NCBI GenBank assembly: GCA_029838215.1
Contig: JALGVI010000083.1
Coordinates: 1-14,746 of the forward strand
Direction of reading: 5' to 3'
Length of the DNA: 14,746 nucleotides
Source: Candidatus Helarchaeota archaeon
GTDB taxonomy: Archaea > Asgardarchaeota > Lokiarchaeia > Helarchaeales > RDOG01
In this document: one piece after another, positions 497 to 14,257 of the stretch
How the letters are laid out: the number at the start of each line of letters is the position of its first letter
How positions within the stretch are numbered: the stretch's first letter is position 1
Translations under genes and position numbers: made by a program
Notes under the pieces: generated by a model
Seen by the model: the letters and a program-made list of their open reading frames with translations, nothing else
Told to the model about the DNA's origin: nothing
The model's database searches: none

Positions 497-1462
497 ATGA
501 ATATTTTACGATTTACAATTCCAAAAGGATCGTTGGGTAAGGCAACAAAGCAGATTCTTAAAGAAGCAGGACTAGGTCTTCGGGGAAGTGATAGATCTTA
601 TCGTCCCAAAATAATAGATGCTGAAATCGAGATCAAGATCTTACGTCCTCAAGAGATTCCCACGATGATTGCACAAGGTGCGCACGACCTCGGAATTTCA
701 GGAAATGATTGGGTGGACGAGACCTCCGCCAACGTGGAAAATATTCTTGACTTGGAATATGGTGGAATTAAGTTGGTCTTGGCGGTTCCCAATATTTGGG
801 ATGAAGTGCAAGATCTTGCATCTTTAATTAAGTTCTGTGCAAGTAGAAATAAACCACTCAGGATCTTTACAGAATATATCGCTACAACCATTGAATACTT
901 GAAGAAAAATCCCGAATATGCACGCCTTTATGGGGATGATGATCCTCTCGTGTTAACACCCTGGTCGCGGACGGGAAATAATTCAAATGTATGCATCATG
1001 CTTTCCTTTGGTGCAACAGAAGCAAAACCACCCGAAGATGCAGAAGCTATTATTGATGTAACTGAAACAGGCACGACGCTTGAAGAAAATAATCTGAAAA
1101 TCATTGACGTGATTAAAACTTCAACGGCACACCTACTTGCAAATAAAGAAGCAATGCAAGACTCGTGGAAACGCGAGAAAATCGAAGACATAAAGATGCT
1201 CTTGCGTGGGGTTGTTGAAGCGCGTAATAAACTCCATGTTTTCATGAATGTTCAAAGGAGCAATTTAAAAATATTATTAGAAAAATTACCCGCATTAAAA
1301 CGACCAACGATCTCGCCACTTTATGGTGATGACGATTGGGTCGCCATAAATACCATAATTCCGAAAAAGGACTTCATCAGTCTAATTCCCACGTTAAGAA
1401 GATATGCTCAAGGCATTGTTGTATATGAACCACGACAAATTCTTCCTTTCGATTCCTCATGA
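497..1462 (+). CDS. hisG: ATP phosphoribosyltransferase, long form with C-terminal regulatory domain
   Basis: IPKGSL N-terminal motif, LRPQEIP, DLGISGxDW, LDLEYG, SFGATEAKP, AIIDVTETGTTLEENNL, C-terminal LPALKRPTISPL domain. Heads the his cluster. Confidence 0.97.
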   Translation: MNILRFTIPKGSLGKATKQILKEAGLGLRGSDRSYRPKIIDAEIEIKILRPQEIPTMIAQGAHDLGISGNDWVDETSANVENILDLEYGGIKLVLAVPNIWDEVQDLASLIKFCASRNKPLRIFTEYIATTIEYLKKNPEYARLYGDDDPLVLTPWSRTGNNSNVCIMLSFGATEAKPPEDAEAIIDVTETGTTLEENNLKIIDVIKTSTAHLLANKEAMQDSWKREKIEDIKMLLRGVVEARNKLHVFMNVQRSNLKILLEKLPALKRPTISPLYGDDDWVAINTIIPKKDFISLIPTLRRYAQGIVVYEPRQILPFDSS

Positions 1463-1474
1463 TTGACGAGACGA

Positions 1475-2764
1475 ATGAAAATGATGAGAATTCTTACAGA
1501 AAATGAATTTCGCACGAAATATCTTGATGAGATTAGAAAACGCTCCACGTTACAGTTTGACGAGATTGTCGAAAGCGTGAAATCCATCATATCCTCTGTA
1601 AAAGAACGAGGCAATGCAGCTGTTCAAGAATTCACGCTAAAATTTGATAATGTTGAAATTCATGATTTGAAAGTCTCACGTGAAGAAATTCAACAAGCCT
1701 ATGAAACCGTTGATGACGATTTCATAAATGCAATAAAAATGGCAGGAACTAACATAAAAAAGTTCCACGAAGCTCAAATGCCAAAAGAATTATGCGTTGA
1801 GACACAGGAAGGAGTTCAAGTAACACGGATAATTCGACCGATTGAATCCGTTGGTTTATACGTGCCTGGAGGACGCGCATCATATCCTTCAAGCGTGTTG
1901 ATGGTGGCCATTCCAGCTCTAGTTGCGAAAGTTCCAACAAGAATTCTTTGCACGCCTCCAAGTAAAAATGGCATTGATCCACGTGTTTTAGTTGCAGCCG
2001 CAGAATCGAAGGTAACAGAGATTTTCAAAGTTGGAGGAGTACAAGCCATTGCAGCGTTGGCTCACGGCACGGAATCCATTCCAAAAGTTCAAAAAATCGT
2101 GGGTCCGGGTAATAAGTTCGTTACGGTTGCAAAAACATTGCTTCAGTCAGAAGTAGGCATTGATTTGCCCGCAGGTCCAAGTGAGATATTAATACTTGCA
2201 GATGAATCAAGCAATTCAAACTTTATTGCATTGGACTTGTTATCTCAAGCAGAACATGACCCAAATGCAATGTGCTTCCTCATTTCAACTTCAGATAAAG
2301 TCGCGGCCTCGACCATTCAGGTACTTGAAAATAGATTTGATCAATTCGAACGAAAGGAAATCATCCAAGAAGTGCTCGAAAATAATCTATTCATTATTAC
2401 CACGAAAAATATTGAAAGTGCAGTGCAATTAACCAATGAAATTGCACCAGAACATCTCGAGATTCAGACTGGTGAACCAGAATCAATATTGCCGAAGATA
2501 AAGAATGCAGGAGCGATCTTTCTCGGTCCGTTTTCACCCGTGGCTGTTGGCGATTATTCCGCAGGTTCAAATCACGTATTACCCACGGGAGGCACGGCAC
2601 GGTTCTTTTCGGGATTAAACGTGTTCGATTTTCTAAAGCAAATAGAAGTCGTCAAGTGTACCAAGGAAGGATTAAAAAAACTCGAAAAAACAACGGTAAC
2701 CATTGCCGAAAAAGAAGGATTAACAGCCCATGCACGATCCGTAACGGAGAGATTCATGAAATGA
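1475..2764 (+). CDS. hisD: Histidinol dehydrogenase
   Basis: VGLYVPGG, YPSSVLM, GGVQAIAALAHGTESI, KIVGPGN, IDLPAGPSE, DLLSQAEHD, IAPEHLE, GDYSAGSNHVLPT. Start could be TTG 1463, ATG 1475 or ATG 1481. Confidence 0.97.
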   Translation: MKMMRILTENEFRTKYLDEIRKRSTLQFDEIVESVKSIISSVKERGNAAVQEFTLKFDNVEIHDLKVSREEIQQAYETVDDDFINAIKMAGTNIKKFHEAQMPKELCVETQEGVQVTRIIRPIESVGLYVPGGRASYPSSVLMVAIPALVAKVPTRILCTPPSKNGIDPRVLVAAAESKVTEIFKVGGVQAIAALAHGTESIPKVQKIVGPGNKFVTVAKTLLQSEVGIDLPAGPSEILILADESSNSNFIALDLLSQAEHDPNAMCFLISTSDKVAASTIQVLENRFDQFERKEIIQEVLENNLFIITTKNIESAVQLTNEIAPEHLEIQTGEPESILPKIKNAGAIFLGPFSPVAVGDYSAGSNHVLPTGGTARFFSGLNVFDFLKQIEVVKCTKEGLKKLEKTTVTIAEKEGLTAHARSVTERFMK

Positions 2765-3879
2765 ACCCACGAAAATTACTAAGCAAGAACCTTAAGGAAT
2801 TCAAGCCCTATACGGCAGGAGCATCCCTTCCTGATATAGCTCGGAAGCTCAACATCACGATTGATGAAATCGTGAAGCTAGATGCCAATGAAAATTTTCT
2901 TATAGATAAAAAATGGTTACGAACAAAGTTCATTGAAGCAGTAAACCGAACTCCTGTCATTATATACCCCGATAAATATGCAATTGACGCGCGTGAAGCC
3001 CTTGCCCGAAATCTAAAGTTTGATCCCGACAATCTATTGATCGGAAATGGCTCTGATGACCTGTTGCTGACGCTATATCATTCATTCACGGATACTCAAA
3101 GTCAGGTTTTAACCATCCATCCAACGTTCTCAATGTATAAATGGTTCGCAAATATAATGGGATGTGAATACATCGAAATACCCTTGAAACGAAATGATTT
3201 TAGTCTTGATATCGAAAAAATTCTCAGCACGGTTACAAAACGAACCAAATTGATAATCATACCCTCACCAAATAACCCGACGGGTAACCAATTTCCACGT
3301 GATCAACTCCTAAAAATCATTAAAGAGACTGAAAGTCTGGTGGTCATAGATGAGGCTTATACTGACTTTTCGGGTGGTTCATTATTGGACCAAGTCCCAT
3401 CAAACCCGAATTTAATCATTCTTAAAACATTCTCGAAACTGTGGGGACTCGCAGGATTGAGATTGGGCTATGCCGTGGCAAGCAAAGAAGTCATTAACAT
3501 TTTAAGAGTCGTACAAGTTCCTTTCACCACGAATGTGGTATCACAAGCATTAGTTCCATTGATGCTTGAAGAGCAAGAATATATTTCCAGCGTAGTTACA
3601 AGGGTAATCGAAGAAAGGGAATGGCTAGAAGAACAACTTTCAGAACTACCTAACATAAAAGTGTATCCTTCTAACGCGAACTTCCTGCTAATTGAGGTTC
3701 GTTCAGGAAACGTGAAAATAACTGAAATCATCGAAGGGTTATTCGAGCAAGGAATACTCATTAGAGACCAGTCAAAATTGAAAGGACTGGAAAATTGTGC
3801 AAGGATAACCGTTGGAACGCGTGAAATGAATGAAAAACTAATCAAGGGACTTAAAAAATTTTTAAGAATCAAGAATTGA
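2761..3879 (+). CDS. hisC: Histidinol-phosphate aminotransferase (PLP-dependent)
   Basis: KLDANEN, IGNGSDDLL, SPNNPTG, VIDEAY, KTFSKLWGLAGLRLGY (PLP lysine), RITVGT. ATG 2761 overlaps the hisD stop (ATGA), so the track start at 2656 is too long. Confidence 0.95.
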   Translation: MNPRKLLSKNLKEFKPYTAGASLPDIARKLNITIDEIVKLDANENFLIDKKWLRTKFIEAVNRTPVIIYPDKYAIDAREALARNLKFDPDNLLIGNGSDDLLLTLYHSFTDTQSQVLTIHPTFSMYKWFANIMGCEYIEIPLKRNDFSLDIEKILSTVTKRTKLIIIPSPNNPTGNQFPRDQLLKIIKETESLVVIDEAYTDFSGGSLLDQVPSNPNLIILKTFSKLWGLAGLRLGYAVASKEVINILRVVQVPFTTNVVSQALVPLMLEEQEYISSVVTRVIEEREWLEEQLSELPNIKVYPSNANFLLIEVRSGNVKITEIIEGLFEQGILIRDQSKLKGLENCARITVGTREMNEKLIKGLKKFLRIKN

Positions 3880-3935
3880 TTACAATTTATAAGATTTGAA
3901 TGTGAAACTGAAAAATTGTCGAAGGGGATTTAAAA

Positions 3936-4532
3936 ATGCAACGAATTGGTAAAGCTGAAAGAAAAACGAAAGAAACGGACATTGAAATCACCGTCAATTT
4001 AGATGGAACAGGCAATTTCAAGCAGGATGTCCACGATATAGGTGGAGGTACAAAATTCATTCTTCACATGCTTGATAACTTCGCCCGACATTCTCTTATT
4101 GACATTGAAATAAAAGCAACAGCAGATTTGCCACATCACCTAATTGAAGACATGGGTATCGTTTTAGGTGAAGCCTTCAACAAGGCATTGGGTGATAAAA
4201 AAGGCATCAACAGGTTCGGCTGGGCATTGGTCCCCATGGATGATGTCCTCTGTCGCGTGGCACTTGACCTCAGCGGACGTATTTATTCTAACGTCGAACT
4301 TCAAGTCTTGGGTGAAACAATCGAAGACCTCCCATTATCACTGCTAAATCACTTCATAGAATCATTAATCAATCAAATGAAAATCAACATGCACGGTCAT
4401 GTCCTATATGGAGATGACAATCACCACAAGGTTGAATGCTTCTTCAAGGCACTTGCCCTGGCAATGAAATGGGCAGTCACGTTTGATCCGAGAAAAGCAA
4501 ACATGATTCCAAGCACCAAAGGTAGTCTCTAA
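3936..4532 (+). CDS. hisB: Imidazoleglycerol-phosphate dehydratase (monofunctional)
   Basis: RKTKETDI, HML, HHLIEDMGIVLGEA, VPMDD, NHHKVECFFKA metal-binding motifs. No N-terminal phosphatase domain. GAAGGGG SD-like at 3921-3927. Confidence 0.96.
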   Translation: MQRIGKAERKTKETDIEITVNLDGTGNFKQDVHDIGGGTKFILHMLDNFARHSLIDIEIKATADLPHHLIEDMGIVLGEAFNKALGDKKGINRFGWALVPMDDVLCRVALDLSGRIYSNVELQVLGETIEDLPLSLLNHFIESLINQMKINMHGHVLYGDDNHHKVECFFKALALAMKWAVTFDPRKANMIPSTKGSL

Positions 4533-5161
4533 TGCAAGTAAGAATAATCGATTACGGCATGGGAAATCTACGAAGCATCGGCAAGGCATGCGAGAAATTC
4601 GTGCCCGATGTCAAGATCATAAATTTCAAAAACCCGAATATTAAGTCATTAATAAAAACGGCTGATGTCCTAATTTTACCAGGGGTTGGGGCATTCCGCG
4701 ATGCCATTGCAAATCTTAAACCAATAGCGGAAAACATCGTTTCATATGCACGCGATGGCGGATATCTGCTGGGCATCTGCCTTGGATTCCAACTCTTTTT
4801 CTCGGAAAGTGAAGAAGGAGGACTTTACGAAGGACTGAACATATTCGAAGGTCGAGTGGTGCGCTTTCCCAATACGGTCAAGGTCGTTCCGCATATGGGC
4901 TGGAATACGCTTGAATATTATCGAAAGAGTGATCCAATGTTTGAAAACGTTCCGGAACACTCATACGTTTACTTCGTGCACTCCTACTATGCAAAACCCA
5001 AAGATAATAACATCATCATCACGCAAACAGATTACGAAGGCGTGAAATTTGCATCCACCGTGGGAAAAAACACGGTATACGCAACGCAATACCATCCGGA
5101 GAAATCCAGTAAAATCGGCTTGCAAATCTTGCAAAACTTCTTGAATTCATGTAGAAAATAG
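4532..5161 (+). CDS. hisH: Imidazole glycerol phosphate synthase, glutamine amidotransferase subunit
   Basis: IIDYGMGNL, LPGVGAF, GICLGFQ (nucleophile Cys), VPHMGWN, YFVHSY, QYHPEKS (His-Glu of the triad). TAATG overlap with hisB. Confidence 0.97.
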   Translation: MQVRIIDYGMGNLRSIGKACEKFVPDVKIINFKNPNIKSLIKTADVLILPGVGAFRDAIANLKPIAENIVSYARDGGYLLGICLGFQLFFSESEEGGLYEGLNIFEGRVVRFPNTVKVVPHMGWNTLEYYRKSDPMFENVPEHSYVYFVHSYYAKPKDNNIIITQTDYEGVKFASTVGKNTVYATQYHPEKSSKIGLQILQNFLNSCRK

Positions 5162-5225: not shown

Positions 5226-5546
5226 CTAAGAGATTATCATGTTCTTCTCTAAAGCATCTATTAAAAGAGAAGACTTATCTTTCATTCGATGAAATTCATC
5301 TGGCGTGTAACAAATAATATCAACGTGTTTTGGAAAATTGATTAATTTCAGTACCATGGACATTCTTAACACGAAGGGAATTCCCTTGAATTCATCAGAT
5401 ATGATGATGACATCAATATCGGAACCTTCCATTGCTTCACCTTTAACTCGAGACCCAAAAAGGATTATCTTATCTGGTTTCAATCGCTTTTTAATTATTG
5501 GGAGCGCTTCTGCCTTGAACTTCTTGATCCATGGATCATTCGTCAT
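5226..5546 (-). CDS. Minimal nucleotidyltransferase (MNT), antitoxin partner of HEPN
   Basis: IILFGSRVKG...GSDIDVIIIS (GS-x10-DxD) with later VDII, 106 aa; overlaps the HEPN gene by 11 nt. Confidence 0.9.
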   Translation of the reverse strand: MTNDPWIKKFKAEALPIIKKRLKPDKIILFGSRVKGEAMEGSDIDVIIISDEFKGIPFVLRMSMVLKLINFPKHVDIICYTPDEFHRMKDKSSLLIDALEKNMIIS

Positions 5547-5940
5547 CTTTTTCTTTCAACTCTGCATAATATTTTTCTAAATTCTTAAAAATACTCTTTG
5601 CGTGTTTCAATTTTGCCTTTACGATTTCCTCATCATACTCCTCATAGGGGACATGTTCCGCAATATCTGGATATCTAGCAAACATGTAATCAGGAACGAA
5701 ATCCATTAAATCTTGAAGCATGCTTTCAGGTAAATGTAAAATTCGCCCTAACTCATCTAAATAATGGATTTTGGGTATTTTCATTCCTCTTAAAGCTATT
5801 ATGGACTTAAGTAGTTTCTCAACGGCTTGATGAATTAGAAATGCAGCAATATCATAGCCTTCAATAGTTATATTTTTCTCCGCCATCTCTAAATCGTGAA
5901 CTGCTTGTTTAAACCATTTCACTGCTACATCCTTATTCAT
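5536..5940 (-). CDS. HEPN-domain protein (MNT-associated toxin)
   Basis: W..QA..DL..A, AAFLIHQAVEKLLKS, IPKIHYLDEL and ARYP are typical of MNT-linked HEPN proteins. ATG 5940 sits behind GAAGGAC, which makes it more likely than TTG 5955. Confidence 0.88.
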   Translation of the reverse strand: MNKDVAVKWFKQAVHDLEMAEKNITIEGYDIAAFLIHQAVEKLLKSIIALRGMKIPKIHYLDELGRILHLPESMLQDLMDFVPDYMFARYPDIAEHVPYEEYDEEIVKAKLKHAKSIFKNLEKYYAELKEKDDE

Positions 5941-6151
5941 GTTTTTGTCCTTCAAATAACTCTTGGAAATCCGTTAAAAGAATAGATGATCAATGAAGAT
6001 TATAATTTAATCGGGATCGCGACCATCCTCATTTCACATACAACTACTTCGGAATCACAAGGAATTGAAAAATTCTCTTGAATATTTAAAAAAATTTAAA
6101 ACAGCAGTTGAAAAGGGAGTAATCACTTTAGATTTGATATGATTTTTAAAT

Positions 6152-6953: not shown

Positions 6954-7685
6954 CTATCCGTTGGGTTTAACTATTTCGTTTCTTTTCGCCGTGAGCAATT
7001 TTTGGTTTTTTAGCAAGAACTTATGACCGAAACCTTTAAGATCGGCAAGTGGACCATCGACTCCTTTGGGATTTCCTGTTTTTGTGTATACGATTTTTGA
7101 TGCTTTAATTGCAGCATGCACGCCTTCAATTGACTTGAAATGTTCGATGAGCAACCTTGCCTTTTTAGGTCCAATATCAAAAAGTCCTTCAACGTAATAT
7201 TGTTGTCTTTCTTCGAGAGTCATTCGTTTTGGGGATGAGCGTGCGAGTATTAGCGGTTGTTCTTCTCTATTTGCCCGTAAGACGATTCTCGTGATGGCAA
7301 TTACGGTATCTTCAATGTTAATGGTTGGGATGATGGGAATCCGGTTCACTTGCGCAACGTGAGTGATGATACCATAAATGGACTGAGGGAGCATTTGTGA
7401 TTTAAAAGCGGATTTCAGGTTTTCAATGATGACGAGTGGTTCTTCATATGCTTCAGAGAGACGCATTAATTGCTCGAAGATATTTCTCGATGGACCTGTT
7501 ACGGACTGGACGAGATCCCTCCCTGTCTTGCGTTCGATTGCAATCTTATCCGAAATCACGTAATCCCCCACTTCAAGTTGTTGCACCACCACGTCCAAAT
7601 TTTCGTTTTTTCGTAGCAACTTGACGATTTTAGCGGGTTCTCGTTGGTCCACCAGTATTCGGAATTTTTGATTTGAGTCCACCAT
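6954..7685 (-). CDS. xpf: Stand-alone XPF/ERCC4-family structure-specific endonuclease with HhH2 domain
   Basis: ILVDQRE, LEVGDYVI, IAIERKT..D (ERKxxxD), GLFDIGPKKA and LKGFGHK HhH motifs. No helicase domain. Confidence 0.9.
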   Translation of the reverse strand: MVDSNQKFRILVDQREPAKIVKLLRKNENLDVVVQQLEVGDYVISDKIAIERKTGRDLVQSVTGPSRNIFEQLMRLSEAYEEPLVIIENLKSAFKSQMLPQSIYGIITHVAQVNRIPIIPTINIEDTVIAITRIVLRANREEQPLILARSSPKRMTLEERQQYYVEGLFDIGPKKARLLIEHFKSIEGVHAAIKASKIVYTKTGNPKGVDGPLADLKGFGHKFLLKNQKLLTAKRNEIVKPNG

Positions 7686-8396: not shown

Positions 8397-10904
8397 TCAC
8401 TCCGTGATGTGATTTTGTTGCATGTAATCAGTTAGGACCTTCACACCCTGTTCACTAAGCGAATAGAATCGGAAGTTTGAGGATTCTGCTTGCACGATCA
8501 GTTGAACTGCCATTCCAATATTGAGAATTTCTTCAATGATAATGGGATGTAGATTCGTGCGGGTCTGAATGCCATCTTTTCGGGATTGAAGGGAGTCAAG
8601 TAAATCTTTCATGACGAGATACGGAAAATAAAACTGTGGACCTTCAGTGGGCATTCCAAAAACGTAGAAATATTCTTCCAATGCAGTTCGTTGTGGAACT
8701 TGAGTGGTTTCAGGTGAGAATGCAATTGAGTTTTGAACGCGTATTTTGAGATCGTCATCCGTGAAATGTTCGGAGAGATCCGGAATGGAAAGGAATACGG
8801 GAAATGCTTCAAGAACATCAGGACGCTTGAGCAATGCTTGGGCTGGTGGGAGGTTTTTCAAGTATGTTATGCGTGGTTTTTGCTTTTTATTATGAGGATC
8901 GATCCCAAGAAGCGGAAGAAGAGTCTTGAGGTCGAAAGGATCTCGAACAGTCGTGGAAAAAATCGTTTCAAAATGTGCAAGAATGTGCGAAGGAAATGCT
9001 TCACTCGCGTGCGGAAGATCTTGAACCAAGCAAGTTCGTGTATGACGACAAAGAGTAAAAATCTTGTCGAATACCTTACAAGGTTTTCTGAAATCGCCTT
9101 GGAAGACTTGTTCAACATCGTTATATATGATAAATCCTTGCAATCCTTGATCTTGAAGAGTCAAAAGAATCTTGAATAGCAAGAGAAGACTGGCGGCTAA
9201 ATGATCGTTATAATAATGTTCGTCGATTTCGATAAGGATGGGTTCACGACGCACGAGTTGTTTCATTGGAATCTTTGTATTCTGCAGGGCGGAAGCGATA
9301 TATCCCTTTGACCAACTATCAAAAACGTGATGTAATCGTTGATATTCGCGGGCATCTCTTATATCCAAGTCTTTCACGTGGATCGCATTCAAGAGCTCCT
9401 GATTGATCTGACTTGGACCAGTATTGGGCGTTGAATTGCCAACAGTAACTTGCTTGTGTAACAAATCCATTATCTTATTCTTGAGGAGCGTGAGTGTTTG
9501 TGGCGTTAATGGAAATAGAGTTTCGATGATTTTTAGAGCGCATGTAGCATAATATTCAGGATCAATTCCTTCAGTATCGAAAAATCCGAAACTGGCATCC
9601 TGTCCTAGGCGCAATACCAAGAGTTGGGGAAAGATTTTAGCAAGATCGCGTAAGCGTTTCTTTTTAGTAATGATGATGCACGGTTTTTCCGCCTTTAACA
9701 AGTTATATAGTAGACATTCAGCAATACGTGAGCGGCGTTCGGGATGATCTCCCGAAATCAAGATGGAACCTTTAAGATGAGCTTCTAAGAGTCCAACTTT
9801 GGTTTCTGATACGGCCCAAGTAGGATCATAAGTCGTGCCGAAAGGAGTAAAATCATATCCCAAGTTAGTGGGCACGATGAACTGGGCATTGGGCACGTGT
9901 GAAAGTGACTTTTTAATGGTATTAGAAAGACGAAAAACGTTATTTATAACTTCACGCCCGGATAAGAGGAATTTATGCTCGGATTCAGGAAATGCGGCAG
10001 TCTTAATGAAATGAATGAGCTGAGGCTTTTTGAAAGGGACCACCTTAGACTCACGAAAACTAGAAGACGTGATTGCAAACAATCGCTGCCCTTGTAACGA
10101 TACTTGTCGCCAGAGACCTGCCCGAATGTCCGAGAAAATGCCATTAAACTTGCTCTGGACTGCCATCGTGGTGAAATAAATCGCCCCTTTCCAGACACCT
10201 GCGTGATCGTTTTTTATTATTTCGACATGCTTTTTCAAGTTTTTCTTAGAAATTTTTTTGCGTTCTCTCCAGGAAAATAGTGTTTTATAATTGTCTGGAT
10301 TCAGCGGTGCAATGTCTAACCAATAACTAAATGGAATGCGAGCTCCATAAAGTTGATCCACGACATTCTCAAATTTTCCCTCGATTTTAGATGGAAATTC
10401 CGTGATTTCATAGACTTTCATTCCATAGATCTCTTCATCACTCTCAAAAAATAAAACATCACCCTTTCCCATCCCATTAGAATTGTCGGGCTTCCAGAAA
10501 TAACAAGCCTGGGGTCGCAGGGGAGATATTCTTTCAATATCTTTTACTGTTGAAAGCCATGAAACCAAACTTGACCTGATATGAGGTTGAAGAAAGAAAA
10601 TTAAGGAACCAAAAATCGATAAAAATAAGGAATATCCCAATACCAGACTCAAGTAGATGTTTACGAAACCAAATAAACAAATGGGAATGAGGAATGAAGC
10701 TAAAGCAATACATCCTGAAATTATTAAACCATTAAAAGATACTAGAGGATTAGAAACAAATTTACGCTTTTTCCAAGTAATGCTAGACTTGAAAGTATTA
10801 AGTCCGGGAAATTCGCCCATCTCAAGACCGGCTTTAAGAACTTGTCGCATTAAAGCTGCTTGAGAAAAACGAGAATTCCCATTGAAATTCATCTTTTTTT
10901 GCAT
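8397..10904 (-). CDS. Membrane-anchored HerA/VirB4-like (DUF87-type) P-loop protein with degenerate catalytic motifs and C-terminal winged-helix-like segment
   Basis: Two TM helices (about aa 55-105). Secondary-structure spacing matches FtsK-HerA cores: SILISGDHPERRS at the Walker A position, KPCIII strand, FIIYNDVEQVF at the Walker B position, LKNLPPAQALL...AFPV at the C-terminal strand. ATG 10904 lies 6 nt after TGAGGTG, so it is preferred over GTG 10913. Confidence 0.6.
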   Translation of the reverse strand: MQKKMNFNGNSRFSQAALMRQVLKAGLEMGEFPGLNTFKSSITWKKRKFVSNPLVSFNGLIISGCIALASFLIPICLFGFVNIYLSLVLGYSLFLSIFGSLIFFLQPHIRSSLVSWLSTVKDIERISPLRPQACYFWKPDNSNGMGKGDVLFFESDEEIYGMKVYEITEFPSKIEGKFENVVDQLYGARIPFSYWLDIAPLNPDNYKTLFSWRERKKISKKNLKKHVEIIKNDHAGVWKGAIYFTTMAVQSKFNGIFSDIRAGLWRQVSLQGQRLFAITSSSFRESKVVPFKKPQLIHFIKTAAFPESEHKFLLSGREVINNVFRLSNTIKKSLSHVPNAQFIVPTNLGYDFTPFGTTYDPTWAVSETKVGLLEAHLKGSILISGDHPERRSRIAECLLYNLLKAEKPCIIITKKKRLRDLAKIFPQLLVLRLGQDASFGFFDTEGIDPEYYATCALKIIETLFPLTPQTLTLLKNKIMDLLHKQVTVGNSTPNTGPSQINQELLNAIHVKDLDIRDAREYQRLHHVFDSWSKGYIASALQNTKIPMKQLVRREPILIEIDEHYYNDHLAASLLLLFKILLTLQDQGLQGFIIYNDVEQVFQGDFRKPCKVFDKIFTLCRHTRTCLVQDLPHASEAFPSHILAHFETIFSTTVRDPFDLKTLLPLLGIDPHNKKQKPRITYLKNLPPAQALLKRPDVLEAFPVFLSIPDLSEHFTDDDLKIRVQNSIAFSPETTQVPQRTALEEYFYVFGMPTEGPQFYFPYLVMKDLLDSLQSRKDGIQTRTNLHPIIIEEILNIGMAVQLIVQAESSNFRFYSLSEQGVKVLTDYMQQNHITE

Positions 10905-10941
10905 GCATGCCACCTCAGGACATAAAAAATATTGAATTCAA

Positions 10942-10968: not shown

Positions 10969-10974
10969 CTTTTA

Positions 10975-11010
10975 ATACATGTTCGCAAGGTTGGGTGCTT
11001 CAACCATAGC
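10975..11010. repeat. Left copy of a long inverted repeat (IR-L)
   Basis: 10975-11001 ATACATGTTCGCAAGGTTGGGTGCTTC. Its reverse complement matches 14288-14314 at 26/27; looser similarity continues to 11010 (GCTATGGTT versus GCTACGGC). Confidence 0.9.
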
Positions 11011-11326
11011 TTGCTATTATTCAATCTTCAAATGAAGGTAATGAGTGTTCCAATCTCATATTTGCAAGGCACGGATGCACCCCGATTGAGGATCGAAAAA
11101 TTGAGATGAGAAAAAAAGGAGAAAATGTCGGAACTTTCTTCCTAAAAAAAACAACGCTCAAATCATTCTTTTAGACATTGAATGGAGTTTGTAGTGCGTG
11201 ATAAAAAAATTATGCTTACGTTCTTTTTGATCCTGAAGGGTAACCATTAACCTCAATATTTTCGTCTAAATACCATTATTTCTTGGAATAGAACTTGATT
11301 TAATTGTTGAAGTGAAAGATCATCTT

Positions 11327-11479
11327 GGTGCGGAAAAATCCCGCCGAGCAGCGTGTATTACAAAACGATACGGGGTTCGGGTCGAAGCAACCCGGATTTC
11401 GAAATCCAAACCTTCGGGTTTGGTCTCTACTTTTTTAAAATACACGCTCCCGGTGGAACCCGCGAGGGTCTCCACCCCC
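11327..11479. ncRNA. Unidentified highly structured element (candidate ncRNA or DNA hairpin cluster)
   Basis: About 54% GC by manual count in AT-rich flanks. A 10-bp perfect stem 11350-11359/11439-11448 encloses three abutting hairpins (11378-11394, 11394-11407, 11406-11423), with extra hairpins at 11330-11344 and 11452-11476. Confidence 0.55.
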
Positions 11480-11544
11480 ATTTTAAAAAATTTGGCTAGT
11501 TGGCTCAAAACACAAAAATTAATTAAAAAATACAGTTAGAATTC

Positions 11545-12932
11545 TCATTTTCTTCTAAATTTATTCTCTTGAAATTTCGGACGTTTTTTCAACTGGTTCA
11601 TTAAATAAAAGCCCAAGATTATCCCTGCAATGATCAATACGCTGTACTGGATCATTTCACTGAACGGTAGTAAGAGAGGAGGGTATTTAATTGTTGCAAA
11701 ATCGAATTCTGAAAGTAGATAAGAAGAATTTGTGTAATATACTTGATTACCCTGTTGGTATTCGGCAGAATCCCACAAATCCCCATCCTGCCAAATCCAA
11801 TGAACCGTATCATTGTAAACGCAAAAGCGAACCGCCCGAGGATCATTTAATGCAGGAAAATAAAGGATTCGTGGCACTTGCCAAGAATTTAAGATCGGAT
11901 CATGATGTAAATAAGTTAAAAAAGAACCCTGCAATAACCAATCAATATTAATGATGTTCCAAGTTGGATAAGTCACGTGAATACCTCCGATATCGTCCGC
12001 ATGTAATTGAGCTTGTAGAGGTCTCAATTGGTTCCGCGAATCCTTGATCAAGTAGAAAGATTCAATCCCCGAATCACCAGACCATGTATAAATCGTGAAA
12101 TTATCGAGATCTAACGATGGAGCGTTGGCAATGAAAAGATGACCTGACTCACCACGTTCGATATCAATGAAATGATCGCATGTCGTAGTTTCCATGATGT
12201 CATTTGATACAATGAGCGTGAGATTATCCGTGTAAGTAAGGCTCACGAGTTGTGGTGGTTTGACACCGGTCATCTTGATGTAGATATAAGAAAAAACGTT
12301 CCCCTGTGGTAGAAGCCACGTTTCCGTAAACGATCCTTGCTGCAAATATGTAAACATGTCAATTGAATAAATCAATTTATCACTCAACGTCTCAGCAGTT
12401 AAGTTGTGGGCTACCAAGCGATATTCCACGTATAATCCCGCAGACTTCACGTACGAGAAATAACTAAGGTTATTTGTGGCCCAAAAACCATAATTTTCAT
12501 CAGTCCAACGTGCATGAATTAGGCTTGATGCCACCGTGCAGTTGAACCACGTATCATTATTTTTAAATTAAGAATTCTGGCGTGGGACAAGTACAGAGAA
12601 CCGTTAATGAATTCTTCAGTAATATTGTAGATTAGCGTGGATTGTGTAGTAAATCCACTATCTGATTTCACGCCATGATGCAATCCTCGCTCATCGAGCC
12701 AACATGCTTGCACGTGTCCTGAAGAATTAACGGAAATATCTGGTGAGTAGCTTGCAATATCTCCAAATCCGACTTGGAATGCACGTGATGAAGGCAAGGC
12801 AGAGCTTGAAATGAAACGAGTTGTTACTAAAGGCATTTCTTCAGGTACGAGCAAGATAGTAGAAAAAAAAATGAATGAACAGAATATAAATAGAAAAAGG
12901 ATGAAAGTAGCACGAACACGATGGCGACTCAT
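11545..12932 (-). CDS. Surface glycoprotein with beta-propeller-like repeats, N-terminal signal/anchor and C-terminal TM; split by a -1 frameshift near 12561
   Basis: ORF 12932-12519 carries a signal peptide and SYSPDISVNSSGHVQACW. ORF 12534-11545 continues open upstream to 12567 in the -1 frame and ends in a TM plus basic tail. The joined product is 462 aa with 11 N-x-S/T sequons. ATGA-coupled to the upstream gene, with SD AAAGGTGA. Confidence 0.65.
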
Positions 12933-14257
12933 GAAATCACCTTTACAGGAACGACATTAAGTGGAATCAATTCCTTTCCATGACAAGACGGACACTCGAA
13001 ATTTTTAGCATCCGTAAGAGCCGTCAAGTAATCCACAACGTGAAAGCAATTCTGACACTGGAAATCGAATGCATGTCGTGAAGAACCATTTTCATTCAAG
13101 GATTTATTCCGGTGGCGTGAATTGACAAGAACCATTGCTAAAGTCAGGAAGCGATCAGAAAGTCGATAAAATTCCTTGTGCCGGTCATCCATGAACCCCA
13201 CGATAAAACCCTTGTCTTGAAGGCGATAAAGTGCTTGACGAATGGCAGATGAGGAATAATCAAGGACATCTTCGAACCGTGAATAAGCAAATTCATCCAA
13301 TCCATGCTTCATTTTCAAATAGCAGGCAAATCCGAGCAAGATCAATTCAAGTTCGGAACAGTCGTGATGGTGAAGGATGCGTTGAAGAATGGGATACTTT
13401 AATTTATAAGCATTAAGAGCTTGAAGTGCAAGAAATTTCGCTTGTTGAACCCTAAATGCTTGTTGGAATCTTAAAACCGCAGAGGCGTATAAGTGAAGAC
13501 GACATGTCACGATTCCACTTGCATTGAGCTCATATTTTGTAAGTGAGGATTTAATGTCGTTATAAGAGAGAAAATCTTGTATCTGTCGTAGGAAATTCTG
13601 GGCAGGATCGTGTTGGTTTCGGACCTTCATGGCACGTACGGTTATGGTGCACTTACCCTGGAAGATACGGTTATTCTTGAACATGACAAACACGCGCTTG
13701 GAGTTAAAATAACCCGAAAGAATTTTCTCCTGGAGCGTGATGGGTAAATATTCAGGAATGCGGGGGGTTCTATAAAACGTCTTTCGTGAACCCATGATGG
13801 CATTAAAAAGCTTACAAAGAATCAGGGGAAACGTTATGATATATTCTCTAAAATAACGTCGATGTCGTGCCTTTTTATAGGTCTTACGCCCACGATCATG
13901 ATGTGATACATTAAAAGAAATATTCAAAGAACGTGAAAACGATTCGATAAGTGCAAGTTGACGATGCTGGACGCGTATGATAAATTGTTTTGACCAGAGT
14001 GCATTGCCAAGACATAACCCCAACATGTATGCCATTGTGGGCGTGACCGTCAGGGGAAACGGTAGCGTGAGAATAGTTCCGGGATTTTCTTTCAAGCGAA
14101 CTTTTATCATTCGCTCCTTGACTTTTGGCATTAAATTTGGGAAGAAGCTCGTCCACTTGTCTTTCTCGGAGTTATAATATTGAAAACCCTGCCTGCTCAA
14201 TTCTATCGTGAGCCTTTTTTCGACAGCGGTGGTTTGGTCGTTGTTTTCTCTCTTCAT
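12929..14257 (-). CDS. Degenerate LAGLIDADG domain fused to TFE-alpha-like winged helix and Cys4 zinc ribbon; putative transcription factor
   Basis: AYMLGLCLGNA (aa 76-86) and RIPEY...ILSGYFNSKR (aa 166-188) are two LAGLIDADG-type helices. AIRQALYRLQDKGFI is the wHTH. FQCQNC-x17-CPSCHG is the Zn ribbon. SD GAGGGT lies 8 nt before the ATG. Confidence 0.65.
   Translation of the reverse strand: MKRENNDQTTAVEKRLTIELSRQGFQYYNSEKDKWTSFFPNLMPKVKERMIKVRLKENPGTILTLPFPLTVTPTMAYMLGLCLGNALWSKQFIIRVQHRQLALIESFSRSLNISFNVSHHDRGRKTYKKARHRRYFREYIITFPLILCKLFNAIMGSRKTFYRTPRIPEYLPITLQEKILSGYFNSKRVFVMFKNNRIFQGKCTITVRAMKVRNQHDPAQNFLRQIQDFLSYNDIKSSLTKYELNASGIVTCRLHLYASAVLRFQQAFRVQQAKFLALQALNAYKLKYPILQRILHHHDCSELELILLGFACYLKMKHGLDEFAYSRFEDVLDYSSSAIRQALYRLQDKGFIVGFMDDRHKEFYRLSDRFLTLAMVLVNSRHRNKSLNENGSSRHAFDFQCQNCFHVVDYLTALTDAKNFECPSCHGKELIPLNVVPVKVIS

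Follow-up and report, generated by a model that had tools for sequence, protein, structure and literature searches.

A LAGLIDADG fold without catalytic acids joined to a TFE-alpha-like module in Helarchaeales: a candidate island-specific transcription factor

A gene of an Asgard archaeon encodes a protein in which a LAGLIDADG fold without catalytic acids precedes a C-terminal module that is homologous to TFE-alpha/TFIIE-alpha, with winged helix, helical linker and zinc ribbon in colinear order. We think it somewhat probable that this fusion is a domesticated, vertically inherited and promoter-selective alternative TFE, dedicated to one genomic island and working beside the housekeeping TFE. 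In the scenario that we propose, an intein-type LAGLIDADG domain would have lost both of its catalytic acids and become joined to a duplicate of TFE-alpha. The LAGLIDADG part may grip promoter DNA, and the TFE part, because most of the residues that contact the clamp and the stalk are conserved, is inferred to dock on the clamp and stalk of RNA polymerase; the targets would be its own gene and the operons of an island of DNA-handling and cell-surface genes, which it would presumably activate. TFE/TFIIE is known to act generally, without recognising particular sequences. If the proposal is true, archaea would have a new way of choosing promoters, by joining a conserved TFE copy to a fold that recognises long DNA sites. 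The family would then also be a second case, separate from WhiA in bacteria, of a LAGLIDADG endonuclease domesticated into a transcription factor, and could help to explain how DNA exchange or repair is controlled in Asgard archaea. A more far-reaching version, that of a sigma-like promoter-selective TFE that reads long, co-drifting promoter elements and switches on an island for DNA uptake and recombination, is tentative and, on balance, doubtful.

The preliminary description had pointed to the ORF at 12929-14257, which lies on the minus strand and encodes 442 aa; the ORF, its motif helices, N85, K187 and the cysteine pattern are all at the positions claimed (Table 1). It had also noted the lack of intein motifs, which agrees with a stand-alone ORF that has no match to an intein family in Pfam, and had been aware of no description of the fusion; a literature search of incomplete coverage gave no paper on a LAGLIDADG-TFE fusion. 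The protein is identical in three sister assemblies, one of which differs by two synonymous changes. Identity to the P0002 gene is 0.62, 0.73 and 0.36 at codon positions 1, 2 and 3, and in comparison with the closest relatives positions 1 and 2 are conserved and position 3 is near saturation, which indicates that the gene is maintained and its protein under selection. About 21 full or partial homologs were found among 1.8 billion representatives; about 22 homologs retain this architecture and, together with the codon-position signal, argue that it is more than chance. Searches of Pfam and PDB with the single sequence gave only PaaX-like and zinc-ribbon hints, and profiles were required for the assignments below.

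Table 1. Features in the window, which is the whole stretch of 14,746 nucleotides that was analysed (positions count from its first letter).
Feature	Position	Strand	Basis or remark
Histidine biosynthesis operon	497-5161	+	
HEPN and nucleotidyltransferase pair	5226-5955	-	
ERCC4/XPF nuclease gene	6954-7685	-	
Membrane-anchored degenerate ATPase-like protein with C-terminal winged helix; recurring island gene	8397..10913	-	HerA/VirB4-like, weakly supported
Second copy of the 30-bp element, 2 mismatches, inverted	10972..11001	+	60-90 bp from start of the degenerate ATPase gene; points to the GC-rich element
Downstream membrane/surface protein gene, overlapping the stop codon of the fusion gene	11545..12932	-	Split, 137 + 329 aa; intact, 489 aa, in sister assemblies
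Whole fusion gene, 442 aa: predicted nuclease-dead LAGLIDADG and TFE-alpha-like module	12929..14257	-	ATG start; AlphaFold2 mean pLDDT 90.3
TFE-type four-Cys zinc ribbon, aa 398-432	12962..13066	-	Conservation of Cys and aromatic residues
Linker helix, aa 369-396	13070..13153	-	AlphaFold2 model
TFE-type winged helix with R-x-x-L-Y motif, aa ~299-368	13154..13363	-	hhalign to TFE; conserved residues
Tandem (monomeric-type) LAGLIDADG fold, aa ~70-292	13382..14050	-	Structural matches, Foldseek, LAGLIDADG_3 profile
K187, second catalytic position, non-acidic	13697..13699	-	Acidic (Asp/Glu) in 0/24 homologs
Long basic beta3-beta4 hairpin of the first LAGLIDADG half, aa 116-143; candidate DNA-contact surface	13829..13912	-	Putative role
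N85, first catalytic position, non-acidic	14003..14005	-	Acidic (Asp/Glu) in 0/22 homologs; mostly Ser
N-terminal helix and beta strands ahead of the LAGLIDADG core, aa 1-66	14060..14257	-	AlphaFold2 model; 21% mean identity (weak); no assigned family
Promoter-like element, TATA-like box and 24 bp, ending 30 bp before the fusion start codon	14288..14317	-	30-bp repeat

That the N-terminal half adopts a LAGLIDADG fold, as had been proposed, is borne out by the AlphaFold2 model, by Foldseek and by structural alignment. The best structural match is PI-PfuI (Z 14.2, rmsd 3.4, 177 residues aligned; VIA), and I-DmoI (Z 13.0), I-Tsp061I (Z 12.9) and WhiA (Z 12.3 and 11.8) also match; Foldseek gave PI-SceI as the top matches, and LAGLIDADG_3 is detected in 6 out of 25 family members. 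By sequence, the nearest relatives are LAGLIDADG domains of intein or free-standing type in which a GDG or SEG motif is retained. Both LAGLIDADG helices had been described as lacking the catalytic acid. The register on which this depends is confirmed: when the protein is aligned by profile with an intein LAGLIDADG domain, the GEG and GDG of that domain fall on N85 and K187. As catalytic acids are required for cutting in the known LAGLIDADG mechanism (PMC3384342), and neither catalytic position carries one, the fusion protein should not cut DNA. Across the family the beta3-beta4 hairpin holds 5–13 Lys and Arg per ~32 residues, with R124 nearly invariant, and the long basic form in the first repeat is retained by all Helarchaeales members. 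Mean conservation is 23–27% in the LAGLIDADG domain versus 36% in the winged helix and 34% in the zinc ribbon, the most conserved regions of the protein.

In the C-terminal part, a wHTH is followed by a helix and by C401-x2-C404, Y410, A413, F420 and C422-P-x-C425. This is the TFE-alpha order that had been claimed, but the helix after the wing has 22 aa (369–390) and continues into a low-confidence loop, rather than having 30 aa. NCBIfam TFE models match 13–14 out of 20 family members (best E 6e-11), a search of PDB with the family profile ranked human TFIIE-alpha first and also found P. furiosus TFE, and the genome's own TFE is the top non-self match among 9,736 ORFs (E 9e-7). Alignment of the family to TFE by hhalign reached 98.4% probability over 114 columns, some of the TFE rows having been found using this family. 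With the model of the C-terminal domain, the best 13 Foldseek matches are TFIIE-alpha and T. kodakarensis TFE is 15th; the Atlas neighbours of a homolog's C-terminal domain are all TFE clusters, which we treat as a lead. In rigid structural alignment TFE scores Z 9.3–9.4, tied with many winged helices, and for the winged helix on its own TFE ranks no better than many generic ones. The assignment to TFE/TFIIE-alpha therefore rests on the whole colinear module: the preliminary claim holds at that level, and not for the winged helix alone, which is generic.

Conservation in this module is concentrated at a few positions. In the winged helix R340 is kept in 23 out of 25 members, L343 in 25 out of 25, Y344 and F/Y355 each in 24 out of 25 and F/Y363 in 24 out of 24, and in the zinc ribbon the four Cys and Y/F410 are present in 24 out of 24 and F420 in 22 out of 24. 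For T. kodakarensis TFE, R51, Y55, D59, F65, W75 and Y78 are listed as contacts of the clamp, and Y114, Y115, F127, D128, M131 and F135 as contacts on the stalk side, and the wing tryptophan contacts DNA (PMC7704642). The conserved columns match the clamp-facing R51, Y55, F65 and Y78 and the stalk-facing Y115, F127, M131 and F135; the position of D59 is D/E in 15 out of 25 members. The wing is ~5 residues shorter and has no equivalent of W75, and Y114 and D128 are not conserved. Only 17 residues follow the last Cys here versus 31–52 in most homologs, which keep the final TFE helix; this last helix of the two-helix TFE linker is absent from this copy and from three homologs. A search of this assembly for the cognate Rpo7 gene found none.

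The homolog with the highest identity, 53%, carries the label Candidatus Helarchaeales, and others carry Helarchaeota or Lokiarchaeota; our assignment to the order Helarchaeales is taken from these names. The fusion gene is single-copy in 6 out of 7 genomes of the order, the seventh genome being 82% complete. A restriction to Helarchaeales is ruled out by a diverged homolog in Candidatus Asgardarchaeia that shares both the architecture and the GYLNS motif; in the Asgardarchaeia members the R-x-x-L-Y motif has been lost, and their genes are not located in the island. The family was not found in other genomes among the 400 searched in the phylum; a search for related loci found no relative in viral contigs and nothing useful in GTDB contigs. 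Since a canonical TFE is present elsewhere in all 7 genomes of the order, the fused TFE module is a paralog, as had been suggested. In a tree built from 46 modules, no fused module falls within the canonical Asgard TFEs, and the grouping of the fused modules follows the host families, which rules out a recent duplicate of the host TFE; the two fused groups may share a single origin.

The fusion resembles several known systems and belongs to none of them. With TFE-alpha/TFIIE-alpha (PF02002, TIGR00373, NF004910; PDB 6kf4, 6pln, 5gpy) it shares the colinear winged helix, linker helix and zinc ribbon, the R-x-x-L-Y helix and the aromatic positions of clamp and stalk contact; however, it scores 35.4 bits versus a family cut-off of 149.5, has an N-terminal extension of 290 aa, a short wing without tryptophan and, in this copy, no last helix, and coexists with the canonical TFE. 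Membership as a TFE ortholog was therefore rejected, as it falls below the curated cut-off and a canonical copy is present in each genome. The label "WhiA-like" survives as an analogy in domain logic: as in WhiA/DUF199 (PDB 3hyi, 8dy9), a nuclease-dead tandem LAGLIDADG is followed by a domain of DNA-binding type, and the gene is retained by its hosts. Yet the C-terminus is a TFE module with a zinc ribbon instead of the WhiA helix-turn-helix, on which ground membership was rejected, identity is 7–14%, and the fusion is archaeal and narrow in range; no WhiA model is among the Pfam/NCBIfam matches listed for the family. Because intein endonucleases score as well as or better than WhiA, the fusion was likely domesticated independently of it. 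The fold and helix motifs of LAGLIDADG homing endonucleases (PI-PfuI, I-DmoI, PI-SceI; PF14528) are also present, but both catalytic acids and the following Gly are lost, there is no intein and the gene is not mobile; a stand-alone single-copy gene without catalytic acids and with a host-like tree was rejected as a member of that group. Sulfolobus TFB3 provides a functional analogy as a basal-factor paralog for DNA-damage and DNA-transfer genes (ups, ced), but it is a truncated TFB without a DNA reader of its own, is not homologous to the fusion and acts through other factors (PMC6101594).

At 13 other Helarchaeales loci the fusion gene has recurring neighbours: nine loci carry a FEN1 paralog, eight a surface protein of ~815 aa, six a membrane-anchored degenerate ATPase, six a Hel308-like helicase and five a DHH protein; XPD-like and RadA/RadB-like genes recur as well. 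The island is split in this genome, with the ATPase and a membrane gene in the window and the rest on another contig (C34), which carries PolB, FEN1, Hel308, RadB, RadA, XPD, a small GTPase and several membrane proteins without known family. The canonical FEN1 and Hel308 lie elsewhere in the genome, and the copies on that contig are paralogs. The degenerate ATPase is weakly linked to HerA by its match to HerA chains (E 0.048) and by HerA_C in a homolog (E 0.005). TFB3-controlled ced genes belong to DNA-damage and DNA-transfer regulons (PMC6101594, PMC11823120), which the content of the island recalls; the ATPase assignment is weak, and the likeness to Ced is proposed as one of gene content.

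With up to 7 mismatches allowed, the 3.6-Mb genome contains the 30-bp element upstream of the fusion gene only twice, and both copies begin with a TATA-like box. At 8 out of 13 loci the upstream region of the fusion gene shares elements of 14–156 bp with another intergenic region of the island (scores 16–112), a count in which related genomes are not independent; several of the segments are AT-rich, and they vary from one genome to another. None of 120 random promoters reached a score of 16, and the maximum for non-island regions in these genomes was 11.8. In four of the eight sharing loci, the copies stand at a similar distance ahead of a TATA box and are oriented like the operon that follows. 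No single motif common to all fusion-gene promoters was found; RGTRCTY after the TATA box (4/14 versus 8/1,580) and GTTAGAG before it (3/14 versus 0/1,580) were picked from the same sequences and are only leads. Judged by sequence comparison, the shared elements show that the fusion gene is co-regulated with the island; the identity of the regulator does not follow from the sharing.

Several points would weaken the reading of the fusion as an alternative TFE, namely the lost W75 equivalent, the missing last helix and the generic winged helix, the Asgardarchaeia members that lack R-x-x-L-Y and lie outside the island, and the differences of the shared, sometimes AT-rich, elements from genome to genome. 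Part of this evidence could be claimed for a repressor or a competitor of TFE, which would bind the same promoters and block initiation at the TATA-to-start region or at the TFE/Spt4-5 clamp site without opening DNA: the DNA-contacting tryptophan of the wing is gone, the last helix is truncated in this copy, and the 30-bp element spans the TATA box and the next 24 bp, a typical position for a repressor. We nevertheless consider this role unlikely, and the joint conservation of clamp- and stalk-facing surfaces, which a simple steric repressor would not need, counts against it. It is also rather unlikely, in our view, that the protein is an alternative TFE in which the LAGLIDADG part serves as a scaffold or clamps DNA without specificity, with promoter choice left to a partner or to the winged helix, as proposed for WhiA. 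The poor conservation of the beta strands (23–27%) and the lack of a motif common to all promoters fit such a role, as do the precedents of TFB3, working via other factors (PMC6101594), and of WhiA, whose LAGLIDADG domain may not be a sequence reader (PMC3384342), a precedent that may also be held against the alternative-TFE reading; the long basic hairpin kept in all Helarchaeales members and the co-drifting sites, which would fit a co-evolving sequence reader, speak for direct recognition instead.

A role outside transcription, in which the protein would bind DNA as an accessory to the machinery for recombination or DNA uptake in the island and would reuse the TFE part as a generic winged helix and zinc ribbon, is suggested by the neighbouring FEN1, Hel308, XPD and RadA paralogs and degenerate ATPase, but appears improbable for a family whose best-conserved positions are polymerase-facing aromatic residues. 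Strongly disfavoured, and of very low probability, is the reading of the protein as a homing endonuclease, active or recently decayed, that belongs to a mobile element with the 30-bp inverted repeats as its boundaries. These repeats do bracket the fusion gene and the next gene, and the nearest LAGLIDADG relatives are intein and free-standing endonucleases with intact motifs. However, no homolog has the acidic catalytic residue, the gene is single-copy with a tree that follows its hosts and strong conservation at the protein level, its orientation is the same in three sister assemblies, the viral contigs searched contained no relative, and the elements shared in other genomes are promoter copies in direct orientation and not ends.

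Some further observations concern the surroundings of the gene and of its relatives. The split in the downstream membrane gene is an 82-bp deletion at ~12568 relative to the sister assemblies, which rules out a programmed frameshift. A GC-rich, strongly folding element (11320-11485, plus strand; z -5.1) lies ~320 nt downstream of the second 30-bp copy, and its sequence is the same in a sister assembly; near the fusion gene, this element included, there was no match to Rfam or to a tRNA, and the element is possibly a non-coding RNA. The histidine operon, the HEPN/nucleotidyltransferase pair and the XPF gene appear to be ordinary content of the window. Sister assemblies diverge beyond the upstream GNAT-like gene, one of them having DprA and GmrSD genes there, which suggests that the region upstream of this gene may be a variable insertion site.

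In one Helarchaeales genome (G003), a 156-bp near-identical copy of the fusion-gene promoter stands before the gene for the ~815-aa surface protein. The neighbourhood of the Asgardarchaeia homolog holds a Cas6-like gene, a small GTPase and a leucyl aminopeptidase. Several Lokiarchaeia genomes encode stand-alone diverged TFE-alpha paralogs of 164–187 aa besides the canonical TFE. Of the 301 Asgard genomes searched, 143 have the family of degenerate ATPase-like proteins that end in a winged helix; it has no family name, and its gene is often found beside a Hel308-like gene and is sometimes split in two.
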